64,000 nt of DNA, taken from the NCBI GenBank assembly GCA_041497895.1, contig JBGQHJ010000004.1:298-64297 (forward strand), read 5' to 3'. The stretch is from Candidatus Methylomirabilia bacterium (lineage in GTDB: Bacteria; Methylomirabilota; Methylomirabilia; Rokubacteriales; CSP1-6). Positions within the stretch are counted from its first letter, which is position 1. Each line of letters begins with the position of its first letter. Under the pieces are notes generated by a model. It searched no databases. It saw only the letters and a list, made by a program, of their open reading frames with translations, and had not been told where the DNA came from. Positions 18,060-64,000 of this stretch are shown piece by piece. The translations under genes were made by a program, and so were the position numbers.

Positions 18060-18478
18060 GCGTGGGGCCCCTCGGCGATCGCCAGCAGCGCCTCGAGGGC
18101 GTCCGCGGCCGTGAAGACGCCCACCACCTGCTCCCCGTCCCAGACCGGGAGCGCGCCGATCCGGCGCTCGAGCATGAGCCGCGCCGCCACCGTCATCGGC
18201 ACCCCGCGCCCCACGCTGACCGGGCCCTCGCTCATGATGGAGCGCACCGGCGCGGCGAGCGCGGGCGACCCCGGCTCGTGGCCGACGAGCCGCCGCAGGT
18301 CACGGTTGGAGAGGATGCCGGTGAGCACCGGGCCGTCCATCACGAGCAGGTGCCGCACGGCGGCGCGATCCATCAGGGCGACGGCGACGTGGACCGGGGT
18401 GTCCTCGGCCACCGCCACCGGCGGCTTGCTCATCCAGTCGCCCACCGTCCCGCCGCGCGCCCCGCCGTCCGGCGTCAT
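18056..18478 (-). CDS. CBS-pair domain protein
   Basis: 140 aa with two CBS repeats. The stop overlaps the start of the acetyl-CoA synthetase gene. Confidence 0.85.
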   Translation of the reverse strand: MTPDGGARGGTVGDWMSKPPVAVAEDTPVHVAVALMDRAAVRHLLVMDGPVLTGILSNRDLRRLVGHEPGSPALAAPVRSIMSEGPVSVGRGVPMTVAARLMLERRIGALPVWDGEQVVGVFTAADALEALLAIAEGPHA

Positions 18479-18483
18479 GGCGC

Positions 18484-18924
18484 TCAGGCGGGCTCGCGCA
18501 CCGTGAGCACGGGGCACGGCGCGAGCCGGATCACCCGATCGGCCACGCTGCCGAGGAGCGCGCGGTCGATCCCGCCGCGCCCGTGGGTGCCGATGACGAT
18601 CAGGTCGGCCCGCTCGTCCACCGCGAGCGTCACGATCTCCTGGTAGGCCACGCCGCTGCGGAGCGCGGCGCGCGCCGAGAGGCCCTCGGCCCGCGCCTTG
18701 GCCGCCCACTCCTCGAGCGCGGCGTCGGCGAAGCTCCGGGCCGCCTCGAAGACCTCGCGCACCTTGGGCATGATGAACGGGCCCTCGCGGAACAGCGGAG
18801 CCTCGGTCAGCACGTGGGTCAGCACCAGCTCCGCGCCCGACATGCCGGCGAGCCGCTGCGCGAGACGCCACGCGTCCTCCGAGCACGACGAGAAGTCGGT
18901 CGGGACGATGATCCGGTAGAACAT
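18484..18924 (-). CDS. Universal stress protein
   Basis: 146 aa. IIVPTDFSSCSE..., GTHGRGGIDRALLGSVAD. Confidence 0.9.
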   Translation of the reverse strand: MFYRIIVPTDFSSCSEDAWRLAQRLAGMSGAELVLTHVLTEAPLFREGPFIMPKVREVFEAARSFADAALEEWAAKARAEGLSARAALRSGVAYQEIVTLAVDERADLIVIGTHGRGGIDRALLGSVADRVIRLAPCPVLTVREPA

Positions 18925-18928
18925 GGTG

Positions 18929-19360
18929 CTAGGCCTCCCCGATCGGGATCATGGTGCCCCGGGCCGCGGGCGTCTTGGGCAGCGTCACGGTCAGGAGCCC
19001 GTTCTTGACCGTCGCGGTCACCCGCGCCGCGTCCACCGCCACCGGCAGACGCAGGGTGCGGACGAAGACCCCGCAGACGCGCTCGGCGTGATGATAGCGC
19101 GCCCCGGGCTCCCGGCGCTTCTCCCCCTTGATCGTGAGCAGGCCGTCGTGGAGCGCGATCTCGACGTCCTGCCGCTCCAGTCCCGGCACCTCGAGAGTCG
19201 CGACCAGGCTGTCGCCGGTCTCGGCGACATCCAGGCTGGGTACCCAGTCCCCCAGCGCCGGCAGCTCCGTGCGCTTGACCCGCGCGATGCGATCGAGCAG
19301 CCGGTCCATCTCCCGCTGCAGGCTTTCGATTCCGGCCCACGGCATCAGCCCGCGCATCAT
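18929..19360 (-). CDS. Hsp20/alpha-crystallin family small heat-shock protein
   Basis: 143 aa. WVPSLDVAETGDSLVATLEVPG...GLLTIKGEK...NGLLTVTLPK. Confidence 0.9.
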   Translation of the reverse strand: MMRGLMPWAGIESLQREMDRLLDRIARVKRTELPALGDWVPSLDVAETGDSLVATLEVPGLERQDVEIALHDGLLTIKGEKRREPGARYHHAERVCGVFVRTLRLPVAVDAARVTATVKNGLLTVTLPKTPAARGTMIPIGEA

Positions 19361-19408
19361 GGTGGTCTTCCTCCCTCCTCGAGCGTCACGTGCCCGCCCT
19401 CGAAGATT

Positions 19409-19424
19409 TGCAACGCGAGTGCCA
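19409..19424 (-). promoter_or_regulatory. Sigma-54 promoter (-24/-12), perfect consensus, upstream of the hsp20-USP-CBS operon
   Basis: The minus strand reads TGGCAC-tcgcg-TTGCA. Predicted +1 is ~19398, 38 nt before the hsp20 ATG at 19360, with a GGAGG-rich leader. Confidence 0.75.
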
Positions 19425-19475
19425 CGAGAGACCCCCGTCGATTCGGGCAGTTACGGCCGGCGGCGGCGCGACCGC

Positions 19476-19493
19476 CGAGGCGGCCCCGCCTCG
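19476..19493. promoter_or_regulatory. Inverted repeat CGAGGCGG-cc-CCGCCTCG; candidate enhancer (UAS) for the hsp20 sigma-54 promoter
   Basis: 8-bp arms, 52-69 nt upstream of the -24 element. The arms resemble the TGAGGCGG/CCGCCTCA arms at 27557-27587 and 61149-61166. Confidence 0.3.
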
Positions 19494-19581
19494 CTGTGGC
19501 GACGGCGCCCCAGGACCTCTTGAAGCCACCCGGCCCTTGGCCCACAATGCAGGCGTTCATGATCCCGCGCGCCGAGGCCAC

Positions 19582-21747
<2,166 letters not shown>

Positions 21748-21774
21748 CGGTGACCGGTCGCCCGCGGCGCGGGC

Positions 21775-23208
21775 TCAGTCCCGGTCCTCGCGCTTTGCGG
21801 TCTCGGCGCGCTCGCGATGGAGGCTGCGTGCGTGGAGCAGCAGGCCGAGCGCCAACCACAGCGCGATCACCGCCACCGGCACCGCGATCAGCCGCGGCCA
21901 GACGAGGCCGAGGAGGGCCAGCGCCACGAGCGCGACCCCGGCGCCGCCCATGATGCGCGCCTCGGCCGGACCCAGCGCGCGGCGCCCGGTCACCGCGGCA
22001 CTCACCGCGCTGCCGATGCTCACCGCCCCGGCGGCGGCCCGACCGGCGCTGCCTCGCCGCCGGGCCCGGCGGCGAGGCGAGGGCGCGGTCCGCACCACGC
22101 GCGAGCGCGCCGAGAGGGTGATCTCGGTGGCGCGCGTGAGGTCGTCGAGGTACATCCGCTCCATGGCCTGCGCGAAGCCTTCGTCCTCCACCGCCACGTC
22201 GAGCTCCCAGTTCCCGAACCAGGACTGCAGGTTCAGGTTGGTCGAGCCCACGCGGGCCCAGCGACCGTCCGCGACCGCGGTCTTGGCGTGCAGCATGGAT
22301 CCGTTCCACTCGTAGACGCGCACGCCCGCCTCGAGGAGCGGGCGATAGCCGGCCCGCGACAGGCCCCGCAGCAGCCAGATGTCGCTGGCGCCGGGCACCA
22401 GCAGGCGCACGTCGACGCCGTCGCGGGCCGCCGAGCTCAGGGCCTGCACATAGGTGGCCGTCCCGACGAAGTAGACGTCGGTGAGCCACAGCGTCCGCCG
22501 CGCCGCCGCCGCGATCAGCTGGTCCAGGCGGTACACCGCGGCGGTGCCCGGGGCGCTCGCGATCACCCGCATCGCCATGTGGCCGGCGGGCGCGGCGCGA
22601 TCACGGGCCAGCCGCGAGGTGCCGGGAGCCGGCGACCCGGCGGCCAGCGCCCACATCCGGGCGAACGCCTCCTCGAGCGCGGCCACCGCTGGCCCGCGCA
22701 CCGCCACGCCGGTGTCGCGCCATGGCTCGATCCCGCGCGCGGGATCGCCCACCCAGTGGCGGCCCACGCAGAGGCCGGTGACGAACGCGACCCGCCCGTC
22801 GACCGCGAGCATCTTCCGGTGATCGCGCGCCAGCCAGGCGAACGGGCTCGACAGGCCCGGCGGATTGAAGCCGCGCACCTCGACGCCCGCCGCGCGCAGG
22901 TCGCGCCAGAACCGCCGGCCGGTCTTGCCGACCGCGCCGAGCCAGTCGTAGATCACGCGCACGCGCACCCCCGAGCGGGCGCGCGCCGCGAGCGCGCGGG
23001 CGAACTCCTGTCCGGTCGCGTCGTCGTGGATGATGTAGCTCTCGAAGTGGATCGTGTGCTCCGCCGCCCGGATGGCCCCGAGCCACGCCGGGTAGTTCTG
23101 GCCCGCGTCCTTGAGCAGGCGCACCTCGTTGCCGGTGATGAGGGGTGCTCCCGACGCGCGGGCGAACGCTTGCTCGACGACCGGGAAGGTCTTCCGGGGC
23201 TCGTCCAC
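21775..23208 (-). CDS. Phospholipase D family protein / cardiolipin synthase-like
   Basis: 477 aa with two HKD motifs (HRKMLAVDG; HAKTAVADG) and C-terminal transmembrane helices. Confidence 0.9.
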
Positions 23209-23215
23209 GGGTCCG

Positions 23216-23221
23216 ATTATG
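23216..23221 (-). promoter_or_regulatory. Possible -10 box (CATAAT) for the PLD/cls gene; would give a near-leaderless mRNA
   Basis: The minus strand reads gtagCATAATcggacccGTG. The hexamer ends 7 nt before GTG 23208. No convincing -35. Confidence 0.25.
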
Positions 23222-23275
23222 CTACAGCCCCCGGCGGGTCCCCCGGGGCATACTCGGCACGAGGGAGGTGCCGCG

Positions 23276-24133
23276 ATGGATGCCCTGCTGCCGCCTCAGA
23301 TGGCGGAGCGCGCCGAGACGATCGGGGTGGCGAAGACGTCGATGGACGCCTCGCGGCTCTTCGTGCTCGCGGTCCTGGCCGGCGCGTTCATCGCGCTGGG
23401 GGCCGTCTTCGCCACCACCGCGCTGGCCGGGTCGTCCGCCCTGCCCTGGGGGCCCGCCCGCGTGCTCGGCGGGGTCGCCTTCAGCCTCGGGCTCATCCTG
23501 GTGGTGGTGGGTGGCGCCGAGCTCTTCACCGGTAACAACCTGATCGTGATGGCGTGGGCGAGTGGCCGCGTGAGCACCCCCGCCCTCCTCCAAAACTGGG
23601 CCATCGTGTTCGCCGGCAACTTCGCGGGAGCCGCCGCGACCGCGCTCGCGGTCTGCCTGGCCGGCACCGCCCGCGGCGGCGACGGCGCGTTCGGCGAGGC
23701 CGCCTTCGCCATCGCGCAGGCCAAGCTCGCGCTCCACCCGTTCCAGGCGGTGGTGCTCGGCATGCTGGGCAACTCGCTCGTGTGTCTCGCGGTATGGCTC
23801 GGCTACAGCGCGCGGACCACCGCCGACCGGATCCTCGCGATCGTGCCGCCGATCAGCGCGTTCGTGGCCGCCGGCTTCGAGCACTCGGTCGCGAACATGT
23901 ACTTCGTGCCCTATGCGATCTTCGTCACCGCGCTCGATCCGGAGTGGGTCCGCGCGCACGCGCCGGCCGCGGGCGCCGCCGCGCCGACGTGGGGCGCGTT
24001 CCTGGTGCGCAACCTGGCGCCGGTCACGCTCGGCAACATCATCGGCGGCGCGGTGCTGGTGGGCGCGGTCTACTGGTTCGTCTACCTGCGGGGCCGGCCG
24101 GGCTCGAAGCGCGCGAGCGGGCGCGAGTCCTAG
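23276..24133 (+). CDS. Formate/nitrite transporter (FNT) family protein
   Basis: 285 aa. GAELFTGNN and FEHSVANMY are signature FNT motifs. Confidence 0.9.
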
Positions 24134-25227
24134 GCGGGGGCCTCGTCGCCGAAGATCGTCCCCACGCTGCGCGCCACCGTCACGCGCTCCCCGAGCGGAT
24201 CGACGAGACGCGGACGGGTGACGGTCTCATCGATGGGCACGCGCTCGATCCGATTGCCGTGCAGGGCCACCATGCACCCGGAGTCGCCCTCGGCGAGCGC
24301 GGTCACCGCCGCGACCCCGAACCGGGTCGCCAGCATCCGATCGAACGCGGTCGGGCCCCCGCCGCGCTGCAGGTGCCCCAGCACGACGCAGCGCACCTCG
24401 AAGGGCACGAGGGCCTCGAGCGCGTGGGAGACCACCGCCCCCACCCCGCCCAGGCGGATCGGCTCCGGGCTGTCCGCGATCCGCTGGTGCACCACCGGGC
24501 CCCCGTCGGGACGGAGGGCTCCCTCCGCCACCACCACGATCGAGAACCGGCGGCCGCGATGGGCGCGCGCGAGGATGCCGGTGGCGGCGGCCTCGTAGCG
24601 GAACGGGATCTCCGGGATCAGGACCACGTCCCCGCCCGCCGCGATCCCGGCCTCGAGGGCGATCCAGCCCGCCTGCCGGCCCATCACCTCGACCACCATG
24701 ACGCGGTGATGGGCGGCGGCGGTGGTGTGCAGCCGATCGAGCGCCTCGGTCGCCACGCCCAGGGCCGAGTCGAACCCGACCGTGATGTCGGTGCCCGACA
24801 CGTCGTTGTCGATGGTCTTCGGGATGCCGACGATCGGCAGGCCCCGCGCGGCGAGCCGCCGGGCGATCGTGAGGCTACCGTCGCCGCCGACCACCACCAG
24901 GCCGTCGAGCCCGTGCCGCGCCGCGGTGGCCAGCACCGCGTCCGATCGATCCTCGTAGCCGGTCCCGCCCACGATCGGAACGCGGAACGGATCGTCGCGG
25001 TTGGAGGCGCCCAGCATCGTGCCCCCCTGGGCGAGAATGCCGGCCACGTCGTCGAACCCGAGCGGGCGGGCACGATCCGCGAGCAGCCCGGCGAAGCCGT
25101 CGAGGAAGCCGGTCACCCGGAGCTCGTGCCGGTGCTCCGCGGTCTTCACCACCGCGCGCACCGCCGCGTTCATCCCCGGGCAATCGCCGCCCGCGGTCAG
25201 GACGCCGATGTGGCGGGGGCGCGCCAT
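24130..25227 (-). CDS. pfkA: ATP-dependent 6-phosphofructokinase
   Basis: 365 aa. GVLTAGGDCPGMNAA, VVVGGDGS, IVGIPKTIDND, MGRQAG. Confidence 0.9.
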   Translation of the reverse strand: MARPRHIGVLTAGGDCPGMNAAVRAVVKTAEHRHELRVTGFLDGFAGLLADRARPLGFDDVAGILAQGGTMLGASNRDDPFRVPIVGGTGYEDRSDAVLATAARHGLDGLVVVGGDGSLTIARRLAARGLPIVGIPKTIDNDVSGTDITVGFDSALGVATEALDRLHTTAAAHHRVMVVEVMGRQAGWIALEAGIAAGGDVVLIPEIPFRYEAAATGILARAHRGRRFSIVVVAEGALRPDGGPVVHQRIADSPEPIRLGGVGAVVSHALEALVPFEVRCVVLGHLQRGGGPTAFDRMLATRFGVAAVTALAEGDSGCMVALHGNRIERVPIDETVTRPRLVDPLGERVTVARSVGTIFGDEAPA

Positions 25228-34914: not shown

Positions 34915-37440
<2,526 letters not shown>

Positions 37441-50118: not shown

Positions 50119-50556
50119 TCACCGGCAGACCAGCACCGGGATCTTGCTGTGGGTGAGCACCTTCATCGTCTCGCTGCCGAGCACCAGGGCCGACATGCCC
50201 TTCCGCCCGTGGGAGGCCATGAAGATCAGGTCGCAGCCCCCCTTGCGGGCGGTGTCGATGATCGCCTCGTAGGGGTGGGGCGCCCGGACGTGGAGCGTCT
50301 CGCAGGGCACGCCCGCGACGCTCGCCTCGGCCTTGGCCATCCCGAGACACTTCTCGGCCAGCGCCTCGCAGTGCTGCTCGTACTGCCCGGGGGTGTCGCT
50401 CACCATGACCGGATCGAGCGCGAAGGCGTGGAACGGGATCGAGACGGTCATCGCGGTCACCCGCGCCTGCATGCTCTTGGCGAAGAGAATGCCTTGCCGG
50501 ATCGCCAGCTCGGACAGCGTGGACCCATCGGTGGGGATCAGGATGTGCTTGTACAT
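50119..50556 (-). CDS. Universal stress protein
   Basis: 145 aa. MYKHILIPTDGS..., ASHGRKGMSALVLGSET. Confidence 0.9.
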   Translation of the reverse strand: MYKHILIPTDGSTLSELAIRQGILFAKSMQARVTAMTVSIPFHAFALDPVMVSDTPGQYEQHCEALAEKCLGMAKAEASVAGVPCETLHVRAPHPYEAIIDTARKGGCDLIFMASHGRKGMSALVLGSETMKVLTHSKIPVLVCR

Positions 50557-51209
50557 GTGGAGCCTCCTTCGGGCCAGCCCTCGGCCCCGATCAGTGGGAC
50601 GAATGCCACGTACTCCAGGTTCTCGTGCTCGTACTCGTGTGCGTCGGTCCGGGTCACCCGGACGAGCCGCTGGCTGCGCGGGTCCGTGCCCACCGGCATG
50701 ATCAGCCGGCCGCCGACCGCGAGCTGGTGCAGGAGAGCCTTGGGCACGCGCGGCCCACCCGCGGTCACCAGGATCGCTTCATAGGGGGCGTGCTCGGGCC
50801 AGCCCAGGCTGCCGTCGCCCTCGAGCACGTGGACGTTGTCGTATCCGAGCTCCGCCAGCCGCCGGCGCGCCGTCTCGGCCAGCTCCCCGACCCGCTCGAC
50901 CGTGTACACCTCGCCCGCGATCCGGGCCAGGACCGCCGCGCCATAGCCGGAGCCGGTCCCGATCTCGAGCACCCGCTCGCCGGGCTTGATCCCGACCGCC
51001 GCGGTCATGACCGCCACGATGTACGGCTGCGAGATGGTCTGGCCCTTGCCGATCGGCAGCGGGCCGTCGTCATAGGCGAACCGCTCCATCGAGGCGGGCA
51101 CGAAGCGCTCCCGCGGGACGGTCCGCATCGCGTCGAGCACGAGCGGATCGGTGATGCCCCGGGCCTCGATCTGGGTCGCGACCATGCGCTCCCGGTCCTC
51201 GCTCAGCAT
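50538..51209 (-). CDS. pcm: Protein-L-isoaspartate O-methyltransferase
   Basis: 223 aa. QTISQPYIVA and the SAM motif VLEIGTGSGY. Confidence 0.9.
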   Translation of the reverse strand: MLSEDRERMVATQIEARGITDPLVLDAMRTVPRERFVPASMERFAYDDGPLPIGKGQTISQPYIVAVMTAAVGIKPGERVLEIGTGSGYGAAVLARIAGEVYTVERVGELAETARRRLAELGYDNVHVLEGDGSLGWPEHAPYEAILVTAGGPRVPKALLHQLAVGGRLIMPVGTDPRSQRLVRVTRTDAHEYEHENLEYVAFVPLIGAEGWPEGGSTCTSTS

Positions 51210-51241
51210 CGGAGCATCACCTCCCGCTCGTCCGGATCCGG

Positions 51242-51682
51242 CTACTCGGCCTTGATCGGGATCATCGTGCCCTTGGCCGCCGGCGTCTTGGGCAGGGTCA
51301 CGGTCAGCAGGCCATTCTTGAAGCTCGCGGTCACCCGGCTCGCGTCCACCGCCACCGGCAGGCGCACGCTGCGGGTGAACGACCCGTAGGTCCGCTCCAC
51401 GCGGTGATAGCGCTCGTCCTTCTCTTCCTTCTCCTGCTTCTTCTCCCCCTTGATGGTCAGGAGGTTCTCCTGGAGCGAGATCTGGATGTCCTTCTCTTCC
51501 ATGCCGGGCGCCTCGATCTTCGCGACCAGGCTGTCCTTCGTCTCCGAGATGTCCATGCTCGGAGCCCAGTCACCGAGCGCCGGGAAGTCCTCCCACTTGC
51601 TCTCGAAGACCCGGTCGAACGCCCGATCCATCTCCTGCTTCAGACTCGCCATCCCCGTCCACGGCATCAACATGCGCATCAT
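51242..51682 (-). CDS. Hsp20/alpha-crystallin family small heat-shock protein; paralog of 18929..19360
   Basis: MMRMLMPWTG... parallels MMRGLMPWAG in the paralog. GAGGAGG precedes ATG 51682. Confidence 0.9.
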   Translation of the reverse strand: MMRMLMPWTGMASLKQEMDRAFDRVFESKWEDFPALGDWAPSMDISETKDSLVAKIEAPGMEEKDIQISLQENLLTIKGEKKQEKEEKDERYHRVERTYGSFTRSVRLPVAVDASRVTASFKNGLLTVTLPKTPAAKGTMIPIKAE

Positions 51683-51735
51683 CGATCCTCCTCTTGGCGA
51701 GAACGTTCCTCTCAACCTACCCGCCGGGCTCCAGG

Positions 51736-51751
51736 TGCATCGTGAGTGCCA
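51736..51751 (-). promoter_or_regulatory. Sigma-54 promoter upstream of the hsp20 / pcm / USP / ABC / ppsA / cytochrome c operon
   Basis: The minus strand reads TGGCAC-tcacg-ATGCA. Predicted +1 is ~51725, 43 nt before ATG 51682. Confidence 0.6.
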
Positions 51752-51881
51752 GGTAGAAGCCGCGCCAATTCAACCGCTTGGCGCGGGCGCGCGGACGAGT
51801 TGCCGAGGCACGCGCGCCCCGGTGAGGCCCGCCCGCCCCAGCGCGTGACGCCGGAAGGCCCGATCTAGCGAGCATTTCCAT

Positions 51882-51897
51882 CGGCATCTGCCTTGCA
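51882..51897 (+). promoter_or_regulatory. Sigma-54-like promoter upstream of the CBS / ACP-FAAL-acyltransferase / HdeD operon
   Basis: CGGCAT-ctgcc-TTGCA. Predicted +1 is ~51908, 31 nt before ATG 51939. Divergent from the 51736 promoter. Confidence 0.5.
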
Positions 51898-51938
51898 CCA
51901 CGATGGGCCGACCCACTCTCACTCACAGGAGGAATGCC

Positions 51939-52361
51939 ATGCTCGGGAAGATCTGCACCAAGCCAGTGGTGACCGCGTCGGCCCAGATGACGGTGGATCA
52001 AGCCGCGCGAGCGATGCGATCCAAGAACGTCGGATCCCTCGTGGTCGTCAACGCCGGACGGCCGGTCGGGATGCTGACCGACCGGGACATCGTCGTCGAG
52101 GTCGTGGCCCGCGGGATGGATCCCGAGGAGGTCCGGGTCGGCGACGTCATGGTCAAGAAGCCGGTGACGATCCGGCAGGATCTCGGGATCTTCGACGCGG
52201 CCAGGACTTTCGCCAAGACCGGCGTCCGCCGGCTCCCCGTCGTCACCGGCAGTGGCGCGCTGGTCGGCGTCATCACGATGGACGACGTGCTCATGCTCCT
52301 CGGCAACGAGATGGGCCACATGGCCGGGGCCCTCTCGGCCGGGCTTCGCCGGGTCTCGTAG
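51939..52361 (+). CDS. CBS-pair domain protein
   Basis: 140 aa starting at ATG 51939, preceded by CAGGAGGA. Two CBS repeats. Confidence 0.85.
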   Translation: MLGKICTKPVVTASAQMTVDQAARAMRSKNVGSLVVVNAGRPVGMLTDRDIVVEVVARGMDPEEVRVGDVMVKKPVTIRQDLGIFDAARTFAKTGVRRLPVVTGSGALVGVITMDDVLMLLGNEMGHMAGALSAGLRRVS

Positions 52362-52379: not shown

Positions 52380-55229
52380 GTGCTGGCCGCGGACGCGATC
52401 CGGCAGGACCCGCGGGCGGTCGCGCGCGACGTCCTCGGCATCGTCTCGGTGCTCGTCGACGAGCTCGGCGGCCGGTCCGGCGACCGGCCGGTCGGGCTCG
52501 ACGACGCGCTCGACCGAGACCTCGGCATCGGCAGCCTCGAGCGGGTCGAGCTGCTGGTGCGGCTCGAGCAGCGCTACGGAATACGTCTGCCCGACGCGGT
52601 GATGGCGGAGGCGGTCAGCCCGCGCGATCTGGTCACCGCCATCCAGGGCGCCGAGCCCCCGGGGGTCGAGACCATGCCGCCGCCTCGCGCGCCGGTCGGC
52701 GAGGCCACTCCGGCGCCGGCACAAGCGAGATCGCTCGTCGAGGCGCTCGACTGGCACGCCCACGCCTCGCCCGAGCGCGTTCACATCTTCCTGCGGGACG
52801 ACGATGGGAAGGAGCGGCCGATCACCTATGGCTCGCTCTGGCAGCGGGCGCACGCGGTCGCGGCCTCCCTGCGAGAGCGGAAGCTCGGCCGGGGCGACAC
52901 GGTGGCGATCATGCTCAGGACCGAAGAGGCCTTCTTCCACGCCTTCTTCGGGGTCTTGCTCACCGGGGCGGTGCCCGTGCCCATCTACCCGCCGTTCCGG
53001 CGCGACCTGATCGAGGACTACGCCCGTCGCCAGACCGGCATCCTGCGGAACTCGGCCGCGCGAGCGATCATCACGTTCCCGGAGGCCCTCCGCGTGGCCA
53101 CGCTGCTCCGCTCCCGCGTGCCGTCGCTGTGGCACGTCGTGGCCGCCCCCGACCTCGCGCGGTCCGGGGGGCCCGGCGCCAGCGAGCGCGGGGGATCGGG
53201 GGACCCCGCGTTGATCCAGTACACCTCCGGGAGCACCGGGGAGCCCAAGGGCGTGCTGCTCTCCCATGGGAACCTGCTCGAGAACCTCCGGGCGATCGGC
53301 GAGGCGATCCGGGTGCGTCCCGACGACGTCGCCGTGAGCTGGCTGCCGCTCTACCACGACATGGGTCTGATCGGATCCTGGCTGGGCGCGCTCTATTTCG
53401 GCATCCCGATCGCGATCCTCTCCCCGCTGGCCTTTCTCGCCCGTCCCGCCCGGTGGCTGCAGGCCATCCACGCCCACCGCGCCACCATCTCCGCCGCTCC
53501 GAACTTCGCCTTCGATCTGTGCGCCCGGCGGCTGACCGACGAGGAGGTCGGTGGCCTCGATCTGTCGTCGTGGCGCCTCGCGCTCAACGGCTCGGAGCCG
53601 GTCAGCCCGGCGACGATCGACCGGTTCACCCTGCGCTTCGGCCCGCGGGGGTTCAGGGCGAGCGCGATGTGCCCGGTCTACGGGCTCGCCGAGGCCTCGG
53701 TGGCCCTCACGATCCCGCCGCCGGGGGCCCCGCGTGTGGACACGATCGGCCGGACGACCTTCCAGGAGGCGGGCCGGGCCGTCCCCGCCGCGCCGGACGA
53801 GCCGGCGCCGTTGCGCTTCGTCTCGTGCGGCCCGCCCCTGCCGCGACACGAGGTGCGCGTGGTCGATCGGGCGGGCCGGCCGCTCGGCGAGCGGGTCGAG
53901 GGCCGGATCGAGTTTCGCGGCCCCTCGGTCACCGACGGCTACTGGCGGAACCCGGCCGCGACCCGGGCGGCGCGACACGACGGGTGGATGGATTCGGGAG
54001 ACCTGGGTTACTGGGCCGACGGCGAGCTGTACGTCACCGGGCGGCAGAAGGATCTCATCATCAAGGCGGGACGCAATCTCTACCCGCAGGAGGTCGAGGA
54101 CATCGTGGGCGCCGTCCCGGGCATCCGGAAGGGCTGCGTGGCCGCCTTCGGCGTCCACGACCCGAGCGTGGGAACCGAGCGGCTGGTGGTCGTCGCGGAG
54201 ACCCGGACGCGCCCGGGCCCCGAGCGGGAGCAGCTCCGGGCCGCGGTGATGGACCGGGTGGTGGCCGCGCTCGGGATCCCGGCCGACGTGGTCGTGATCG
54301 CGGATCCCCACGCCGTGCTCAAGACCTCCAGCGGCAAGGTCCGGCGCAGCGCGACCCGCGCCGTCTACGTGAAGGGCACCCTGGGCCGCCCGGGGCGGAC
54401 GGTCGCGGCGCAGTGGGCGCGCCTGCTCCTGGGCGATCTCGGGGCGCGGGCGGGCCGGGCCGCCGGCCGGCTGCCCGCTCTCGTCCGCGCCGGCTACCTG
54501 GGCTCACTGCTCCTGCTCACCGTCCCGCCGCTCTGGCTGGCCGTGCGCCTCGCCCCGACCGGCCCCACGGCCGACCGGATGGTCCGAGGCTGGTGTCGCC
54601 TGATGCTCACGGCCTCCGGCTGCTCGCTTCGGCTGGAGGGAGCCGACCACCTCTCCGCGCGCGGACCGCTCGTGCTGGCCGCGAACCACGGGAGCTACCT
54701 GGACGTGGTCGCGCTCCTCGCGACCTTGCCGATCCCGTTCCGGTTCGTGGCCAAGCAAGAGCTCGTCACCACGCCGGTCGTGGGAAGCATCATCCGCAAG
54801 GTCGGACACCTGACCGTGGAGCGCGGGCCGACCTCTCGCAGCGTGGCCGACGCCCTACGGGTGACCCGGGCCCTGCGCGACGGCTTCTCGGTGCTGGTGT
54901 TCCCGGAGGGCACGTTCGTGCGGGCGCCGGGCATCCTGCCGTTCCGCCTGGGCGGCTTCAAGGCGGCGGTGGAGACCGGGTGCCCGGTCATCCCGGTCAC
55001 GATCCGGGGAACCCGCGAGATCCTGCCCGATGACAGCTGGCTCCCACGCCCCGGGCCGGTCACGGTGGCGGTCGGTGCCCCGATCGCCCCCGAGCGTGAT
55101 GGCTGGCCGGCCATGGTCCGCCTGCGCGACCGCAGCCGGGCCGAGATCATCCGCCGCTCGGGCGAGCCGGCAGTCGACCGCCACCAGATCCTCCCACCCC
55201 AACCCGGAGACCAAGATGATCAGCGATAG
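52380..55229 (+). CDS. Tri-domain fusion: acyl-carrier-like domain, fatty acyl-AMP ligase, TM linker, lysophospholipid acyltransferase (PlsC/LPLAT)
   Basis: 949 aa. Phosphopantetheine-binding-like LGIGSLERVELL. AMP-binding motifs YTSGSTGEPKGV and SGDLGY. Acyltransferase motifs NHGSYLD (HX4D) and FPEGT. Confidence 0.85.
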   Translation: MLAADAIRQDPRAVARDVLGIVSVLVDELGGRSGDRPVGLDDALDRDLGIGSLERVELLVRLEQRYGIRLPDAVMAEAVSPRDLVTAIQGAEPPGVETMPPPRAPVGEATPAPAQARSLVEALDWHAHASPERVHIFLRDDDGKERPITYGSLWQRAHAVAASLRERKLGRGDTVAIMLRTEEAFFHAFFGVLLTGAVPVPIYPPFRRDLIEDYARRQTGILRNSAARAIITFPEALRVATLLRSRVPSLWHVVAAPDLARSGGPGASERGGSGDPALIQYTSGSTGEPKGVLLSHGNLLENLRAIGEAIRVRPDDVAVSWLPLYHDMGLIGSWLGALYFGIPIAILSPLAFLARPARWLQAIHAHRATISAAPNFAFDLCARRLTDEEVGGLDLSSWRLALNGSEPVSPATIDRFTLRFGPRGFRASAMCPVYGLAEASVALTIPPPGAPRVDTIGRTTFQEAGRAVPAAPDEPAPLRFVSCGPPLPRHEVRVVDRAGRPLGERVEGRIEFRGPSVTDGYWRNPAATRAARHDGWMDSGDLGYWADGELYVTGRQKDLIIKAGRNLYPQEVEDIVGAVPGIRKGCVAAFGVHDPSVGTERLVVVAETRTRPGPEREQLRAAVMDRVVAALGIPADVVVIADPHAVLKTSSGKVRRSATRAVYVKGTLGRPGRTVAAQWARLLLGDLGARAGRAAGRLPALVRAGYLGSLLLLTVPPLWLAVRLAPTGPTADRMVRGWCRLMLTASGCSLRLEGADHLSARGPLVLAANHGSYLDVVALLATLPIPFRFVAKQELVTTPVVGSIIRKVGHLTVERGPTSRSVADALRVTRALRDGFSVLVFPEGTFVRAPGILPFRLGGFKAAVETGCPVIPVTIRGTREILPDDSWLPRPGPVTVAVGAPIAPERDGWPAMVRLRDRSRAEIIRRSGEPAVDRHQILPPQPGDQDDQR

Positions 55230-55785
55230 GCCCCACGGACACTTCCTTCTCGTCACGCTCGGCAAGAACTGGTGGATGATCGTTGCCCGGGGCGCGCTCG
55301 CGATCCTGTTCGGCGCCCTGCTCCTTCTCCGGCCTGCCACGTCCCTGAACGTGCTGGTCGCGTTCTTCGGTGTCTACGCGCTGCTCGACGGCGGCTGGGC
55401 TATCGCGTCGGCCCTCTGGGTCACACGGACGCCCTTCGCGGCCTGGCCGGTCCTGTTCGAGGGCGCGGTGAGCGTCGCGGTGGGTGGGCTCGCCCTGGCG
55501 TGGCCGCTCGTACCCCGCGAGCTGGTGCTCGCCATCGCCACCTGGGGTCTCCTCACCGGGGCCCTTGAGATCACCGCGGCCGTCCGCCTGCCCCGCCGGG
55601 GAGCCGGCTACTGGCTGCTGGCGACGGGCGGCGTGTTCTCGCTGTTCCTGGCCGTGGTCATCCTGATCCTGCCCCACGCCGCGCAGCCGTCGGTCGTCCG
55701 TGCCCTGGGCATCTACGCGCTCGGCTTCGGCGCCCTGCTGGTGGCGGTGGCCTTCTCGCTCCGGAGGACGCTGCCGGCACGGTGA
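55216..55785 (+). CDS. HdeD/DUF308 family membrane protein
   Basis: 189 aa with six predicted TM helices. NWWMIVARGALAILFGALLLL is typical of DUF308. Confidence 0.8.
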   Translation: MISDRPHGHFLLVTLGKNWWMIVARGALAILFGALLLLRPATSLNVLVAFFGVYALLDGGWAIASALWVTRTPFAAWPVLFEGAVSVAVGGLALAWPLVPRELVLAIATWGLLTGALEITAAVRLPRRGAGYWLLATGGVFSLFLAVVILILPHAAQPSVVRALGIYALGFGALLVAVAFSLRRTLPAR

Positions 55786-55852: not shown

Positions 55853-56329
55853 TCACATCACGGCTTCACGCGACCTGCGTCGCGCCACCTCCGCCTCCGT
55901 GGTCCGCATCAGCAACACGGGGATCTCCGCCTCCCGCAGCACGGCCTCGGCCACCGACCCGAAGATCAGGCGTCCGAGGCCGCCACGGCCGTGGGTGGAC
56001 ATCGCGATGAGATCGGCCCCGGCCGCACGCGCGGCCGCCACGATCTCCTCGGCCGGCCCGCCGCTGCGCACCGCGGTCGTGACACGCACGCCCTTGTTCC
56101 GAAGCTCGACCGCCACCGGGGCGAGGTACTCCTCCGCGTCGATCCGCCGCGCGGCCGGGTCCTCGGCCGACAGGTATGGCGAGCCCTCGAGCACCATCGG
56201 CGGGAGGGGCTGGAGGACGCGGAGGAGGGTCACCTCCAGGTCCAGGGGCCCGGCGATGTCCAGGATGAACGGGATGATGGTCTCGGCCACCGGAGAGCCA
56301 TCGAGTGCGACCAGTGCGCGCTTGTACAT
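55853..56329 (-). CDS. Universal stress protein
   Basis: 158 aa. MYKRALVALDGS..., STHGRGGLGRLIFGSVAE. Confidence 0.9.
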   Translation of the reverse strand: MYKRALVALDGSPVAETIIPFILDIAGPLDLEVTLLRVLQPLPPMVLEGSPYLSAEDPAARRIDAEEYLAPVAVELRNKGVRVTTAVRSGGPAEEIVAAARAAGADLIAMSTHGRGGLGRLIFGSVAEAVLREAEIPVLLMRTTEAEVARRRSREAVM

Positions 56330-56425
56330 CGTCGTCTCCTCTAGGCTGGTTCAGGGTCGTTGCTATTTGAACTTCGCGATGGCGCTCCGCAGGGCCGGCG
56401 GCCCTGTCGCCCGTGGCTCATGGAG

Positions 56426-56441
56426 TGCATGGGCGATGCCG
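56426..56441 (-). promoter_or_regulatory. Weak sigma-54-like match upstream of the USP gene
   Basis: The minus strand reads CGGCAT-cgccc-ATGCA. GG and GC are correctly spaced but both hexamers are degenerate. Predicted +1 is ~56415, 86 nt before the ATG. Confidence 0.3.
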
Positions 56442-56584
56442 AGGGGGAAGGCCAGGAAAATCGAGGTCCTGGGAATCTCGCCGCCCCGCCCGAGACCGAG
56501 CGGGCGAGGCGCCACCGCCTCTCGTGGGTCGGCCGCGCCACGCCTGGCCCTTCCGGGCCGGGCATGGCAAGCTGCCCCAGCCCC

Positions 56585-57103
56585 ATGTCCACCATGGCCA
56601 CCTGCCTGTCGCGCGTCGGCCGACTCGTGTATTTCATGGCTCCGGCCTACATCGCCAACATGACCCCGCCCCTCGTCCGTTACTGGCGGGGATGGAACCG
56701 GCCGATCAGCGTGCGGTGGCTCGGCAGTCACAAGACCGTGGTCGGCTTCGGGGCGGGCGTCCTCGCGGCGGTGGTCGTCACGCTCGCCCAGTCGCACATC
56801 GCCTGGCCGGGCGGGCTCGTCGCGCACGACCGCTGGCTCGCGCTCGGTCTTCGATTCGGCGCCGGGGCCATGGCGGGCGACGCCGCGAAGAGCTTCGTGA
56901 AGCGCCGCCTGGGAATCGCCCCGGGCAAGCCCTGGATCCCATGGGACCAGGTGGACTTCGTACTCGGGGCGCTCATCCTGGTCTGGGGTCAGGCGGCCCT
57001 GTCATGGTCCGACGTGGCGATCATCCTGCTCCTGAGCGCCACGGGTCACATCCTGGCGAGCCACGTGGGCTACTGGATCGGGGTGCGGGACGTGAAGTGG
57101 TAG
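56585..57103 (+). CDS. CDP-archaeol synthase (CarS, DUF46/PF01864)-like integral membrane protein
   Basis: APAYIANMTPP, GSHKTVVGFGAG, GDAAKSFVKRRLGIAPGKPWIPWDQ and the C-terminal VRDVKW mirror archaeal CarS motifs. The start (ATG 56585 or 56594) is uncertain. Confidence 0.7.
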   Translation: MSTMATCLSRVGRLVYFMAPAYIANMTPPLVRYWRGWNRPISVRWLGSHKTVVGFGAGVLAAVVVTLAQSHIAWPGGLVAHDRWLALGLRFGAGAMAGDAAKSFVKRRLGIAPGKPWIPWDQVDFVLGALILVWGQAALSWSDVAIILLLSATGHILASHVGYWIGVRDVKW

Positions 57104-57115
57104 ATCCGGGAGGAT

Positions 57116-57313
57116 CTACCCCTTCTTGACCTTGGGCTTGGTGACGCCCCACAGCACGCGCGGTCCCTCGGCGGCCTGGTGAATCGTCGTGTCCTTGCGG
57201 AAGGCGGCCCGGGCGCTCTTCATCCGCCGCGCGACACGCGGGGCCAGCACCCGCACCTCGGGAGGCCGACCCGCCTTGCGGGAACGAGACGCCCCGGTCT
57301 TCGCCTTTGCCAT
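57116..57313 (-). CDS. Hypothetical small basic protein (65 aa)
   Basis: AGGAGG lies 5 nt upstream of ATG 57313. Lys/Arg-rich MAKAKTGASRSRKAGRPP... Directly downstream of a CBS gene. No homology recognised. Confidence 0.4.
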   Translation of the reverse strand: MAKAKTGASRSRKAGRPPEVRVLAPRVARRMKSARAAFRKDTTIHQAAEGPRVLWGVTKPKVKKG

Positions 57314-57337
57314 CACGTCCTCCTGTGGCCGTTGCTG

Positions 57338-61608: not shown

Positions 61609-61869
61609 ATGCGCTACACGAGATCGACCGCAGCAGCGCTGATGCTCGCCGCCGCGGCAATATTCGTGGCGGGGTGCGCGACGGGTCGCATCGCCTGGGA
61701 GAAGGCCGGCATCACCCAGGCGGACCGGGAGCGGGACGAGAACGCGTGTCTCCGGTCCGCCATCACCGCGGATAGCGGTGGCGGGCAGTTGCTCGCCCCC
61801 TACTGCATCGACCGTGAGATCTACACTCGATGCATGGAAGGCCGCGGCTACACCGTTCATTCCCAGTGA
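61609..61869 (+). CDS. Small lipoprotein (86 aa), unknown function
   Basis: GGAGGGAG precedes ATG 61609. Signal peptide with lipobox FVAGC. Three further Cys residues. Confidence 0.6.
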   Translation: MRYTRSTAAALMLAAAAIFVAGCATGRIAWEKAGITQADRERDENACLRSAITADSGGGQLLAPYCIDREIYTRCMEGRGYTVHSQ

Positions 61870-62477
61870 AGCGATTCCTCACCCTGGGGGTGATCGGCCT
61901 GGCTTGCACGCTCGGCTGGGCGCCGGGGGCCGGCGGGGCCGGGTCGGGTCCGACCGAGCAGCTCAAGGGCGCCATCGACCGTGTGCTCCAGGTCCTGGAG
62001 GATCCGGCTCTCAAGGGTGAAGCGCGGGCCGCGGAGCGCCGTCGCGCGCTCAGACAGATCGCCGACGAGATCTTCGACTTCGACGAGACCGCGCGTCGGG
62101 CCATGGCGCAGCACTGGCGGACGCTCACCGAGGCCCAGCGCAAGGAGTTCGTCGAGCTCTTCAGCGATCTGCTGGAGCGCACCTACACGTCGAAGCTCGA
62201 GCTCTACGGCGGGGAGCGGATCCAGTACTCCGCCGCGCGGATCGAGGGCGACTTCGCCACCGTCTCCACCCGGCTCATCACGGAGAAGGGCACCGAGGTG
62301 CCGATCGACTACCGGATGCTCAGGCAGGGAGAGCGATGGCGGATCTACGACGTCAGCATCGAGGGAGTCAGTCTCGTCGCCAACTTTCGTGGGCAATTCA
62401 ACAACGTCATCCGCACCTCCTCCTACGACGAGCTCCTCCGGAGGCTGCGGAGCCGGGGCGCGGAGGTCCGGCCGTAG
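61866..62477 (+). CDS. MlaC/Ttg2D-family phospholipid-binding periplasmic protein
   Basis: GTG 61866 overlaps the upstream stop (GTGA). FDFDETARRAMAQHWRTLTEAQRKEFVELF and WRIYDVSIEGVSLVANFRGQF are typical of the Tgt2/MlaC family. Confidence 0.85.
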   Translation: MKRFLTLGVIGLACTLGWAPGAGGAGSGPTEQLKGAIDRVLQVLEDPALKGEARAAERRRALRQIADEIFDFDETARRAMAQHWRTLTEAQRKEFVELFSDLLERTYTSKLELYGGERIQYSAARIEGDFATVSTRLITEKGTEVPIDYRMLRQGERWRIYDVSIEGVSLVANFRGQFNNVIRTSSYDELLRRLRSRGAEVRP

Positions 62478-62514: not shown

Positions 62515-63069
62515 TCAGGCGGAATGCGACCAGGAGCGGACCCGCCCGACGTCCACGTGGACGAAGTCCGAGTCAGGGTAGTAGCCGACCCCACCCGCAC
62601 GGAGTGCCATGGCGGTGTCGCGGACGGCGCGAAGCAGGCGCCCCGGGACCCGGATGTCGATGGCCATGCCCACCACGTGCAGGCTGGTGGGCGAGACGCC
62701 GCTCGTGGTCGACACGAGCGAGGCATTCGTGGCCGGCGACCGGTACCCGGAGATGACCTCGAAGGGCTCGCGGGTGTCGAGCCGGCCATGGAGCTCGTCC
62801 AGCACCGCCAGCAGGCGCCGGTCGATCGGGTGTACCGCGTTGGTGCGATGGTCGCGCAGGAGGCGGTCGATCCGGCTCAGCCCCTCTCCCAGGTACCGTC
62901 CGGCGGCCCAGTAGGTCGCCCGCACGAACTCGCCGGTGTGGAGGCTGCGCAGCGCGAGCACCCGCGTGCCGGCCTCCGCCGCGATGCCCCGGGTCGGCAC
63001 GAGCAGGGCGGCCATTCCCGCGACGCCGAGCCGTACGAACCGCCGCCTCGCCCGGTTCCGATCAGTCAT
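62515..63069 (-). CDS. DUF882 / peptidase M15A family protein (YcbK-like) with a Tat signal
   Basis: 184 aa. Twin-arginine RRRFVRLG. SGYRSP...H..G.A.D and a C-terminal FVHVD motif. Confidence 0.85.
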   Translation of the reverse strand: MTDRNRARRRFVRLGVAGMAALLVPTRGIAAEAGTRVLALRSLHTGEFVRATYWAAGRYLGEGLSRIDRLLRDHRTNAVHPIDRRLLAVLDELHGRLDTREPFEVISGYRSPATNASLVSTTSGVSPTSLHVVGMAIDIRVPGRLLRAVRDTAMALRAGGVGYYPDSDFVHVDVGRVRSWSHSA

Positions 63070-64000
63070 CTCGCCCACTCCGATCCCCCTCGGCCAGCGC
63101 GGCGGCCAGCCGCCGGTCACGCCCGTAGACGTCCGCCCGGAACTGAACCGACCCGTCCGGCTCCACGAATGCCGTCCAGTACAGTATGTACACGGGTAGC
63201 GGCCGGGTGAGGGAAATTCGCTGCGTCTCGCCGGCGTCCAGGGCGTCGTCGAGGCGCCGCCGGGTCCATCCCTGCGCCTCGTCCTCGAGCACGTGGACGG
63301 CCAGGTCATCGGCCCGCTCCACCCGGATGCACCCATGGCTGGCCGTCCGCACCGGCCGCGCGAACAGTGCCCGGGTCGGCGTGTCGTGCAGGTACACGTC
63401 GAAGCGGTTCGGGATGTCGAGCTTGATGCGGCCCAGTGGGTTGTCGGGCCCGGGCTGCTGCTGCAGCCGGAACGGGAAGCGATCCGCGGGGATCGCGGCC
63501 CAGTCGATCGCGAGCCCGAACGGATCGCTCTCGCGCCGCTCCAGCACCACGATGTCGTTCTCGGCCAGATAGCGACGATTCTCGCGAAGCCGGGGCAGGA
63601 CCTCCTCGACCGCGATGGAGGTCGGCACGTTCCAGCGCGGGTGGAGAACGATCGCGTCCACCCAGGCCTGTACCACCGGCGTCGGATGCCGGAGATCGCC
63701 GACCACGACCCGCGAGGTCAGCACCGGGCGCCCGTCCACGACGACGTGGAGGCGCGCGTCGGGCACGTTGACCACGACGTGGTGGCGCCCGAGCTCCCGC
63801 GGCAGCCAGCGCCACCGCTCCAGGTTCACGACGATCTGCCGGATGCGGTCGGTCACCGGGACGTTCAGGGCCTCGACGGTCGCGGGACCCACGATCCCGT
63901 CGACGGCGAGCCCGTGGCGCGCCTGGAAGCGGCGCACGGCCTCGGCGAGCAGGTCATCGTAACGGACGTCGGCCCGGTGCGACACCAGCTCGTCCTCGGC
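63062..64000 (-). CDS. L,D-transpeptidase (YcbB/LdtD-like: PG-binding plus YkuD domains); N-terminus lies outside the window
   Basis: Contains the PG_binding_1 motif FQARHGLAVDGIVGPAT and the YkuD catalytic motif HDTP...ASHGCIRV. The frame remains open to the window edge. Confidence 0.85.
   Translation of the reverse strand, partial: AEDELVSHRADVRYDDLLAEAVRRFQARHGLAVDGIVGPATVEALNVPVTDRIRQIVVNLERWRWLPRELGRHHVVVNVPDARLHVVVDGRPVLTSRVVVGDLRHPTPVVQAWVDAIVLHPRWNVPTSIAVEEVLPRLRENRRYLAENDIVVLERRESDPFGLAIDWAAIPADRFPFRLQQQPGPDNPLGRIKLDIPNRFDVYLHDTPTRALFARPVRTASHGCIRVERADDLAVHVLEDEAQGWTRRRLDDALDAGETQRISLTRPLPVYILYWTAFVEPDGSVQFRADVYGRDRRLAAALAEGDRSGRDD

Follow-up and report, generated by a model that had tools for sequence, protein, structure and literature searches.

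The gene described here lies at positions 56585..57103 (plus strand) of a 64,000-nucleotide stretch from a Candidatus Methylomirabilia bacterium of the Rokubacteriales, an uncultured soil organism (NCBI GenBank assembly GCA_041497895.1, contig JBGQHJ010000004.1, positions 298 to 64,297), referred to below as the window. Its product is a 172-aa membrane protein of the CarS-like family (Pfam PF01864) that had been read in the initial annotation as a bacterial homolog of CDP-archaeol synthase (CarS). From profile, PDB, model and tree comparisons it is a predicted five-helix membrane cytidylyltransferase of a bacterial-only subfamily; the gene stands in an island of stress genes, in a genome in which the upstream enzymes of archaeal lipid synthesis were not found. 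With a confidence somewhat above even, we favour a CTP:lipid-phosphate cytidylyltransferase of a stress programme that acts on a bacterial lipid, probably phosphatidate, and not in the archaeol pathway. We would class the protein in an uncharacterised bacterial subfamily and not as CarS.

The open reading frame (ORF) of the CarS-like gene starts with ATG and stops with TAG. An alternative in-frame ATG is present at 56564, seven codons 5' of the listed start; homologs are mostly 172 aa long, some 180 aa. The GC content of the window is 72% and the third-position value of the gene (GC3) is 0.86. The 172-aa product and the four motifs quoted in the initial annotation were all found in place: P20-A-Y-I-A-N25..P28, G47..K50-T51..G54..A57-G58, G98-D99...S103-F104.K106-R107-R108.G110...G114......D121-Q122 and, at the C-terminus, V167.D-V-K-W172. 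Against the PF01864 hidden Markov model (HMM) the protein scored 79.2 bits (E = 4.8e-22; gathering cut-off 22 bits) over its full length, covering profile positions 8-175 of 175, and the sole significant relative in a sequence search of the PDB was CarS from Aeropyrum pernix (5GUF; E = 1.7e-13). The match is far beyond chance, and the gene is confirmed as real and as rightly assigned to the CarS-like family. Placement in another family such as CdsA was not obtained: the match to PF01148 (CdsA/CTP_transf_1) was partial and, at 22.5 bits, under the cut-off of 24, and CarS was the best match by both HMM and fold.

A model of the protein was calculated with AlphaFold2 using 34 homologs (pLDDT 90.7, pTM 0.86). 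The top Foldseek match of the predicted model was 5GUF (probability 1.00, TM 0.64/0.69, root-mean-square deviation 2.8 Å, identity 32%) and the second was CdsA from Thermotoga maritima (4Q2E; TM 0.54); the five-helix CarS fold rests on this predicted model. Catalytic residues were judged from family conservation. In an alignment of 36 diverse family members the invariant residues (P20, A24, G47, K50, T51, G54, D99, S103, K106, R107, G114 and D121) are all present in the query, as is every residue conserved at 90% or more; all conserved columns are filled, and the catalytic residues are not lost on alignment. The bacterial clade and the rest of the family have 26 conserved residues in common, among them K50, T51, D99, S103, K106, R107, D121, Q122 and D124. 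Just five positions are clade-specific (P29, W34, G36, V52 and M96), and these centre on the first cytoplasmic loop, PPFVRYWxGWNxP. The catalytic residues are kept in about 94 members of the bacterial clade from several phyla. The PF01864 match, the conserved residues and the fold agree in assigning the protein, as first proposed, to the CarS-like/DUF46 family as a bacterial member whose catalytic core is intact.

Its designation as CarS in the functional sense was not sustained. The NCBIfam equivalog model for CDP-archaeol synthase (NF003114, EC 2.7.7.67; cut-off 148 bits) gave the window protein 105.6 bits; scores for the bacterial clade, in which four other members were scored, ranged from 87 to 111 bits, and on the archaeal side CarS from Methanosarcinales scored 150.4 bits and another archaeal protein 136.2 bits. 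A quick maximum-likelihood tree of 177 homologs united the window protein and all sequences of named bacteria in a single clade (SH-aLRT 98). In a careful tree of 90 rows the 40 bacterial rows all lay on one side of a branch supported by 100% ultrafast bootstrap (UFBoot) and 99% SH-aLRT. The protein does not group with archaeal CarS, the comparison proposed in the initial annotation, and falls in a separate, bacterial-only clade.

The nearest rows outside the bacterial clade are archaeal, as inferred from the neighbouring genes on their contigs, which hold diphthamide synthase, a Hel308-type helicase, ATP-dependent DNA ligase and Rpr2. Identity between the bacterial clade and these nearest archaeal proteins is 45-47%. 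Since the nearest outside sequences lie on contigs with such archaeal hallmarks, the bacterial clade appears to derive from archaeal CarS; that the gene passed from archaea long ago and then moved patchily among soil bacteria is probable. In two of three cases CarS of these nearest archaeal relatives forms an operon with a CDP-alcohol phosphatidyltransferase. Two such operons (L118:5424-7112 and L119:839-1923) adjoin diphthamide synthase, and that of L118 contains a second CTP_transf_1 gene. The searchable genomes of the relatives are about 1.1 Mb in size, low in GC and without geranylgeranylglyceryl phosphate synthase (GGGPS), and these archaea are presumably lipid scavengers. CarS without GGGPS therefore has a precedent.

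The upstream archaeal pathway was searched for in the genome of the window, a metagenome-assembled genome (MAG) with one CarS-like gene, whose 280 contigs total 5.1 Mb at 86.8% completeness and 7.2% contamination. No match to PcrB/GGGPS (PF01884) was found in this 86.8%-complete MAG. The models PF13685 and PF01040 are too general for glycerol-1-phosphate dehydrogenase (G1PDH) and digeranylgeranylglyceryl phosphate synthase (DGGGPS), and their matches were reclassified with NCBIfam: two Fe-ADH-family matches proved to be AroB and a generic alcohol dehydrogenase, and two UbiA-family matches heme O synthase and a decaprenyl-phosphate phosphoribosyltransferase. The latter (G000:C44; L122:850-2352) scored 276 bits against a cut-off of 234 and points to polyprenyl-phosphate-linked sugar chemistry in this Rokubacterium. 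A canonical CdsA (185.7 bits) is encoded on another contig. Because the MAG is incomplete, the search for GGGPS was extended to 20 other carriers of the CarS-like gene, ten of them cultured isolates; GGGPS was missing in 19 of these genomes, the exception being a MAG labelled Bacteroidales. The initial annotation had correctly seen no GGGPS or DGGGPS gene in the window, and the genome-wide search, G1PDH included, found none either. An archaeol pathway is not backed by these results, nor is the suggested bearing on mixed archaeal/bacterial membranes.

The surroundings of the gene were compared over 80 named loci, and flanking Pfam families were tallied without bias for the 150 flanking genes of 47 non-Rokubacteria loci. 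In eight related Rokubacteria loci the CarS-like gene always lies amid universal stress protein (Usp), CBS, Hsp20 and PCMT genes. Over all lineages, Usp, Hsp20, CBS or PCMT genes lie within about 5 kb in 36 of the 80 loci, compared with 4.1% of random 10-kb windows of the window's own genome. The non-Rokubacteria tally was headed by Usp (9) and P-type cation ATPase (7), followed by CBS (5), short-chain dehydrogenase/reductase (SDR; 4), cytochrome b561 (4), phosphoribosyltransferase (4) and Crp (2); that of the Rokubacteria was headed by MlaC (6) and a four-transmembrane 'holin_4_2' family (5), and then came CBS, Usp and Hsp20. P-type ATPase genes are found within 5 kb in 17 of the 80 loci. In four Rhodanobacter genomes (L107:2408-5510, L111, L113 and L114) an MgtA-type Mg2+ importer (TIGR01524, 829 bits versus 611) ends about 40 nt 5' of the CarS-like gene on the same strand, and the two genes likely form an operon. 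Other P-type ATPases lie directly 3' of the CarS-like gene in L092, L094 and L104. Genes for YkuD L,D-transpeptidases also recur nearby and in one cluster are translationally coupled to the CarS-like gene by a GTGA overlap.

Among lipid genes, one link recurs in three lineages: the fusion of acyl carrier protein (ACP), fatty-acyl-AMP ligase (FAAL) and PlsC-type acyltransferase seen in the window. Within the eight Rokubacteria loci the fusion gene adjoins the CarS-like gene only in the closest relatives; in a betaproteobacterium (L069) a full three-domain homolog and the CarS-like gene are 0.7 kb apart, and Rhodanobacter sp. T12-5 (L113) has a related fusion at a distance of 1.3 kb. Within the genus, six genomes have both genes, three the CarS-like gene only, two the fusion only and ten neither (Fisher p = 0.03). 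MlaC genes are near the CarS-like gene in 13 loci, all from Rokubacteria, and a first impression of a general MlaC linkage was dropped. The phospholipase D (PLD)/cardiolipin synthase was never near the CarS-like gene in the other loci. Of the lipid-remodelling neighbours named in the initial annotation the fusion thus holds, while the MlaC link is confined to Rokubacteria and the PLD gene is 34 kb away and non-recurrent. Its further idea of membrane remodelling within a stress programme is supported in modified form: the gene does sit in a stress programme, and the general link is to Usp, Hsp20, CBS and P-type ATPase genes.

The loci with the CarS-like gene resemble the low-oxygen-activated (lxa) locus of Burkholderia cenocepacia, itself likened by its authors to the DosR regulon of Mycobacterium tuberculosis (PMC3721108), in the same gene classes: multiple Usp, alpha-crystallin/Hsp20, cation P-type ATPase, cytochrome b561, a Crp/Anr regulator, phosphofructokinase and an ABC transporter. 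They differ from it in the gene studied here, no CarS-like gene being among the lxa genes listed in PMC3721108. In five proteobacterial loci Fnr/Anr boxes were found within 300 nt 5' of the CarS-like gene, two of them perfect and five with one mismatch. The perfect TTGAT-N4-ATCAA palindromes are at -53 and -76, about 0.02 perfect boxes being expected by chance. An Fnr/Anr-type operator is not present upstream of the CarS-like gene of the window.

Taken against characterised enzymes, the window protein resembles archaeal CarS (Archaeoglobus fulgidus; A. pernix 5GUF) in Pfam family, length (about 170 aa), five helices, 32% identity to 5GUF and the common motifs PAxxAN, GxxKT, GDxxxSFxKRR and DQxD, and the CTP/Mg2+ chemistry is presumably the same. 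Unlike archaeal CarS, it scores below the NF003114 cut-off, belongs to the bacterial clade and has its own loop, PPFVRYWxGWNxP; its gene has a host without GGGPS, DGGGPS and G1PDH, a stress-island setting and no adjoining CDP-alcohol phosphatidyltransferase. With CdsA (T. maritima 4Q2E) it has in common the superfamily, the architecture of the catalytic core and the reaction proposed here; unlike CdsA, it is about 100 residues shorter, has no dimerisation domain and matches PF01148 below the cut-off.

We infer an enzymatic activity, a substrate and conditions of induction as follows. The CarS-like protein would be one component of a stress/low-oxygen survival island, the corresponding islands of Proteobacteria being presumably of the Crp/Fnr type. 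In non-growing cells limited in oxygen or energy, it would convert a bacterial lipid phosphate to its CDP-activated form with CTP and Mg2+. The likeliest substrate would be phosphatidate, possibly drawn from what the FAAL-ACP-PlsC fusion makes out of scavenged fatty acids, and the CDP-diacylglycerol formed would serve the synthesis of anionic phospholipid (phosphatidylglycerol/cardiolipin) and the remodelling of the envelope, without recourse to the housekeeping CdsA. That an Mg2+ importer is linked to the gene accords with the requirement of CarS for Mg2+, described for the A. pernix enzyme (PMC9385802).

Several observations weigh against this proposal. Archaeal CarS discriminates against phosphatidate, and the A. 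fulgidus enzyme fails to complement Escherichia coli cdsA (PMC9385802); with only five clade-specific positions, the lipid-facing parts are little changed. From these two facts, the lipid groove may still prefer isoprenoid chains. The genome already has a CdsA, which leaves a second CDP-diacylglycerol synthase unexplained. No CDP-alcohol transferase recurs among the bacterial neighbours in either tally, the neighbourhoods are variable, and a sigma-54 promoter for the gene is weak at best. The stress-gene background of 4.1% was drawn from the window's genome alone, and the Fisher test of co-occurrence (p = 0.03) ignores phylogeny. Finally, absences from an 87%-complete, 7%-contaminated MAG are not proof, and the cultured carriers compensate for this in the case of GGGPS only.

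The wider CTP-transferase superfamily includes CTP-dependent kinases, namely dolichol kinase, phytol kinase and yeast Dgk1. The same fold might accordingly serve another reaction, the protein being a CTP-dependent lipid kinase or a cytidylyltransferase on a polyprenyl or other envelope lipid phosphate, with a part in carrier-lipid recycling during stress. We regard this as a possible, minority explanation. It would account for the recurrence of YkuD genes, coupled by GTGA in one cluster and present in the window at 63062-63985, and would suit both the few clade-specific changes in the lipid-facing helices and the preference of CarS relatives for isoprenoid chains (PMC9385802). It sits less well with the full CarS signature, in which both aspartates of the DQxD metal site and S-F-x-K-R-R are kept, with best HMM and fold matches to CarS and then CdsA, both cytidylyltransferases, and with the lack of any recurrent prenyl- or polyprenyl-synthesis gene among the bacterial neighbours in both tallies. 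It is improbable, in our estimate, that a captured archaeal CarS lineage held in hypoxia/dormancy regulons CDP-activates an isoprenoid-type or otherwise non-canonical lipid, whether self-made by unknown enzymes or scavenged. The narrower proposal that scavenged archaeal-type or other exogenous isoprenoid ether lipids are re-activated, as is thought for lipid-auxotrophic small archaea, is a little more doubtful still. The closest archaeal relatives, with low-GC genomes of about 1.1 Mb that are devoid of GGGPS, do keep CarS beside a CDP-alcohol phosphatidyltransferase, and the bacterial clade is 45-47% identical to their proteins; in the bacteria, no head-group transferase is nearby, no uptake system is specifically linked and the hosts, which have CdsA, are soil bacteria of the ordinary diderm kind. 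The proposal is speculative.

That the protein is a genuine CDP-archaeol synthase in a bacterium making its own mixed archaeal/bacterial membrane, as the initial annotation had it, agrees with the family, the fold, the catalytic residues and the automatic annotations. De novo CDP-archaeol synthesis by this enzyme is nevertheless unlikely, and the reading as a whole very much so, given a genome with no GGGPS, G1PDH or DGGGPS, the absence of GGGPS from 19 of 20 other carriers, the score under the equivalog cut-off and the separate clade. Moreover, the Cloacimonadota, proposed makers of archaeal-type lipids, have GGGPS and DGGGPS and lack CarS (PMC7852524). That the gene is what remains of a transferred archaeal gene, decaying or without function, would be in keeping with the patchy, accessory distribution; with an intact frame, catalytic residues kept in about 94 clade members of several phyla, a GC3 of 0.86 and conserved upstream elements, we give this almost no credence.

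The 'lipid divide' debate counts CarS among the signature enzymes of archaea, and hundreds of bacterial proteins carry the database label 'CDP-archaeol synthase' for no other reason than Pfam membership. For this bacterial subfamily the label is probably a functional mis-annotation, since the upstream archaeal enzymes are missing alongside its members, whose genes stand consistently in a stress/low-oxygen setting. The question is then which lipid a CarS-fold enzyme activates in non-growing bacteria, several carriers of the gene being cultured. The answer would be either a new stress-specific step in bacterial phospholipid synthesis or, less likely, the activation of isoprenoid lipids in bacteria. 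Should it be true that a captured CarS lineage activates an isoprenoid-type or otherwise non-canonical lipid, soil bacteria under stress would for a time make a membrane that is in part 'archaeal-style', a natural, conditional breach of the lipid divide.

The distribution of the gene was determined in a one-genome-per-species scan of about 185,000 species genomes with a seven-sequence bacterial alignment as the query. At least 174 genomes carry it, spread over Rokubacteria, Gemmatimonadota, Betaproteobacteria and Gammaproteobacteria; among close homologs, the best-named belong to Methylomirabilota/Rokubacteria. Cultured carriers include Rhodanobacter ginsengisoli, R. soli, Rudaea cellulosilytica, Lysobacter niastensis, Dokdonella immobilis and Noviherbaspirillum pedocola. 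Among 41 relatives the gene is present in 11, including nine of the 21 genomes of the same genus and none beyond the family, and a full-length copy was found in about 28 of 201 sampled Methylomirabilota genomes (about 14%), nearly all from the window's family. In the Lysobacterales about 1-2% of genomes carry the gene, the other weak matches being cross-matches of CdsA. A search of plasmids for a relative of the CarS-like gene gave none. This rare, patchy and yet phylogenetically dispersed distribution suggests horizontal spread. The rarity in bacteria assumed at the outset holds overall (at least 174 in about 185,000), although the share of carriers reaches about 14% in the sampled Methylomirabilota and a second, larger bacterial subfamily exists. 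In the literature searches no publication dealing with CarS-like proteins of bacteria from these lineages came up, and CarS is not treated by Coleman et al. (2019).

The second bacterial PF01864 ('DUF46') subfamily forms a clade of its own (SH-aLRT 100) that is not sister to that of the window protein, to which its members are about 30% identical. It comprises 1,415 clusters at 90% identity and includes proteins from Nitrosomonas sp. Is79A3, Methylocaldum marinum, Bradyrhizobium guangdongense and Burkholderiales (L036:5854-6357, P0274-P0393); the Liberibacter gene mentioned in PMC7936317 probably belongs to it. Like the window's clade, this subfamily is bacterial, uncharacterised and automatically annotated as 'CDP-archaeol synthase' or 'DUF46'. 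A PF01864 match above the cut-off was also obtained in the control genome of Thermus thermophilus.

A segment of 0.6-2.0 kb containing the CarS-like gene was found at 92-98% nucleotide identity in five MAGs (L072:4673-5519, L073, L074, L079 and L087) labelled Gallionellaceae, Syntrophales, Rhodoferax, Gemmatimonadetes and Hyphomicrobiales, with differing flanks and GC. The segment also includes the 3'-terminal part of a YkuD-like ORF, whose stop codon overlaps the start codon of the CarS-like gene in GTGA. A small cassette transferred recently would explain the segment, and so would mis-binning or chimeric contigs. L037 (G017) and L041 (G001), placed in the window's genus, are labelled Verrucomicrobiia and Deferrimicrobiaceae; L051 is labelled Verrucomicrobiia, yet its protein groups with the Rokubacteria in the tree, and L077, a locus of betaproteobacterial type, is labelled Klebsiella pneumoniae. 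Such MAG labels need care.

Upstream of the gene in the window, a near-palindrome, TGGCAAGCTGCC(A), is present at 56565..56576 (plus strand), 9-20 nt 5' of the start codon. This element occurs only once in the window and stands at the same place in the Rokubacteria orthologs, even where the reading frame shifts. Because the reading frame across it is not conserved, TGGCAAGCTGCC(A) is probably a cis element, either a gene-specific operator or a small RNA hairpin. A weak sigma-54-like GG-N10-GC site with two mismatches (TGGCTCATGGAGTGC) is found at 56414..56428 (plus strand) and is semi-conserved in L016 and L019; its role as a promoter of the CarS-like gene is tentative. A scan of the whole window for the sigma-54 consensus showed no enrichment, and the ACTTGAGCG enhancer box of the island is absent upstream of the CarS-like gene. 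Neither a sigma-70 promoter nor an intrinsic terminator was found near the gene.

The gene is divergent from a Usp gene at 55853..56329 (minus strand), Usp being the most frequent neighbour across the clade. The 949-aa ACP-FAAL-PlsC-type acyltransferase fusion is encoded 1.3 kb upstream at 52380..55229 (plus strand), and the core stress genes that stay linked in relatives, namely Usp, PCMT and Hsp20 (minus strand) and a CBS-pair gene (plus strand), occupy 50119..52361. An ORF for a DUF308 (HdeD-like) protein, listed from its first ATG at 55030-55785, shares 200 nt with the 3' end of the fusion gene, and its true start probably lies further downstream. On the downstream side follow a 66-aa ORF, a CBS gene, malic enzyme, two further CBS genes, an MlaC-family gene and the YkuD gene. 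The 66-aa ORF (57116..57316, minus strand), convergent with the CarS-like gene, encodes a small, highly basic protein with no family match, whose conservation is 91% among the closest relatives and drops to 60% in a Rokubacterium further removed. The MlaC-family lipid-binding protein, 4.7 kb downstream at 61830..62477 (plus strand), matched HpnM (hopanoid-associated; 94 bits) better than MlaC (45 bits), both under the cut-offs.

At a greater distance, a PLD-superfamily cardiolipin-synthase-like protein with two HKD motifs is encoded at 21775..23208 (minus strand), 34 kb from the CarS-like gene, and, within the same island, an MgtA-type Mg2+-importing P-type ATPase, the ortholog of that directly 5' of the CarS-like gene in Rhodanobacter, at 34915..37440 (minus strand). 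The wider window (15969-25227, 34915-37440) also contains an ADP-forming acetyl-CoA synthetase, a CHASE3-PAS histidine kinase, a formate/nitrite transporter and phosphofructokinase beside the MgtA-type ATPase, and RtcB is likewise among the more distant genes. Together with PEP synthase and malic enzyme, the genes of the wider window appear suited to energy conservation and survival without growth.

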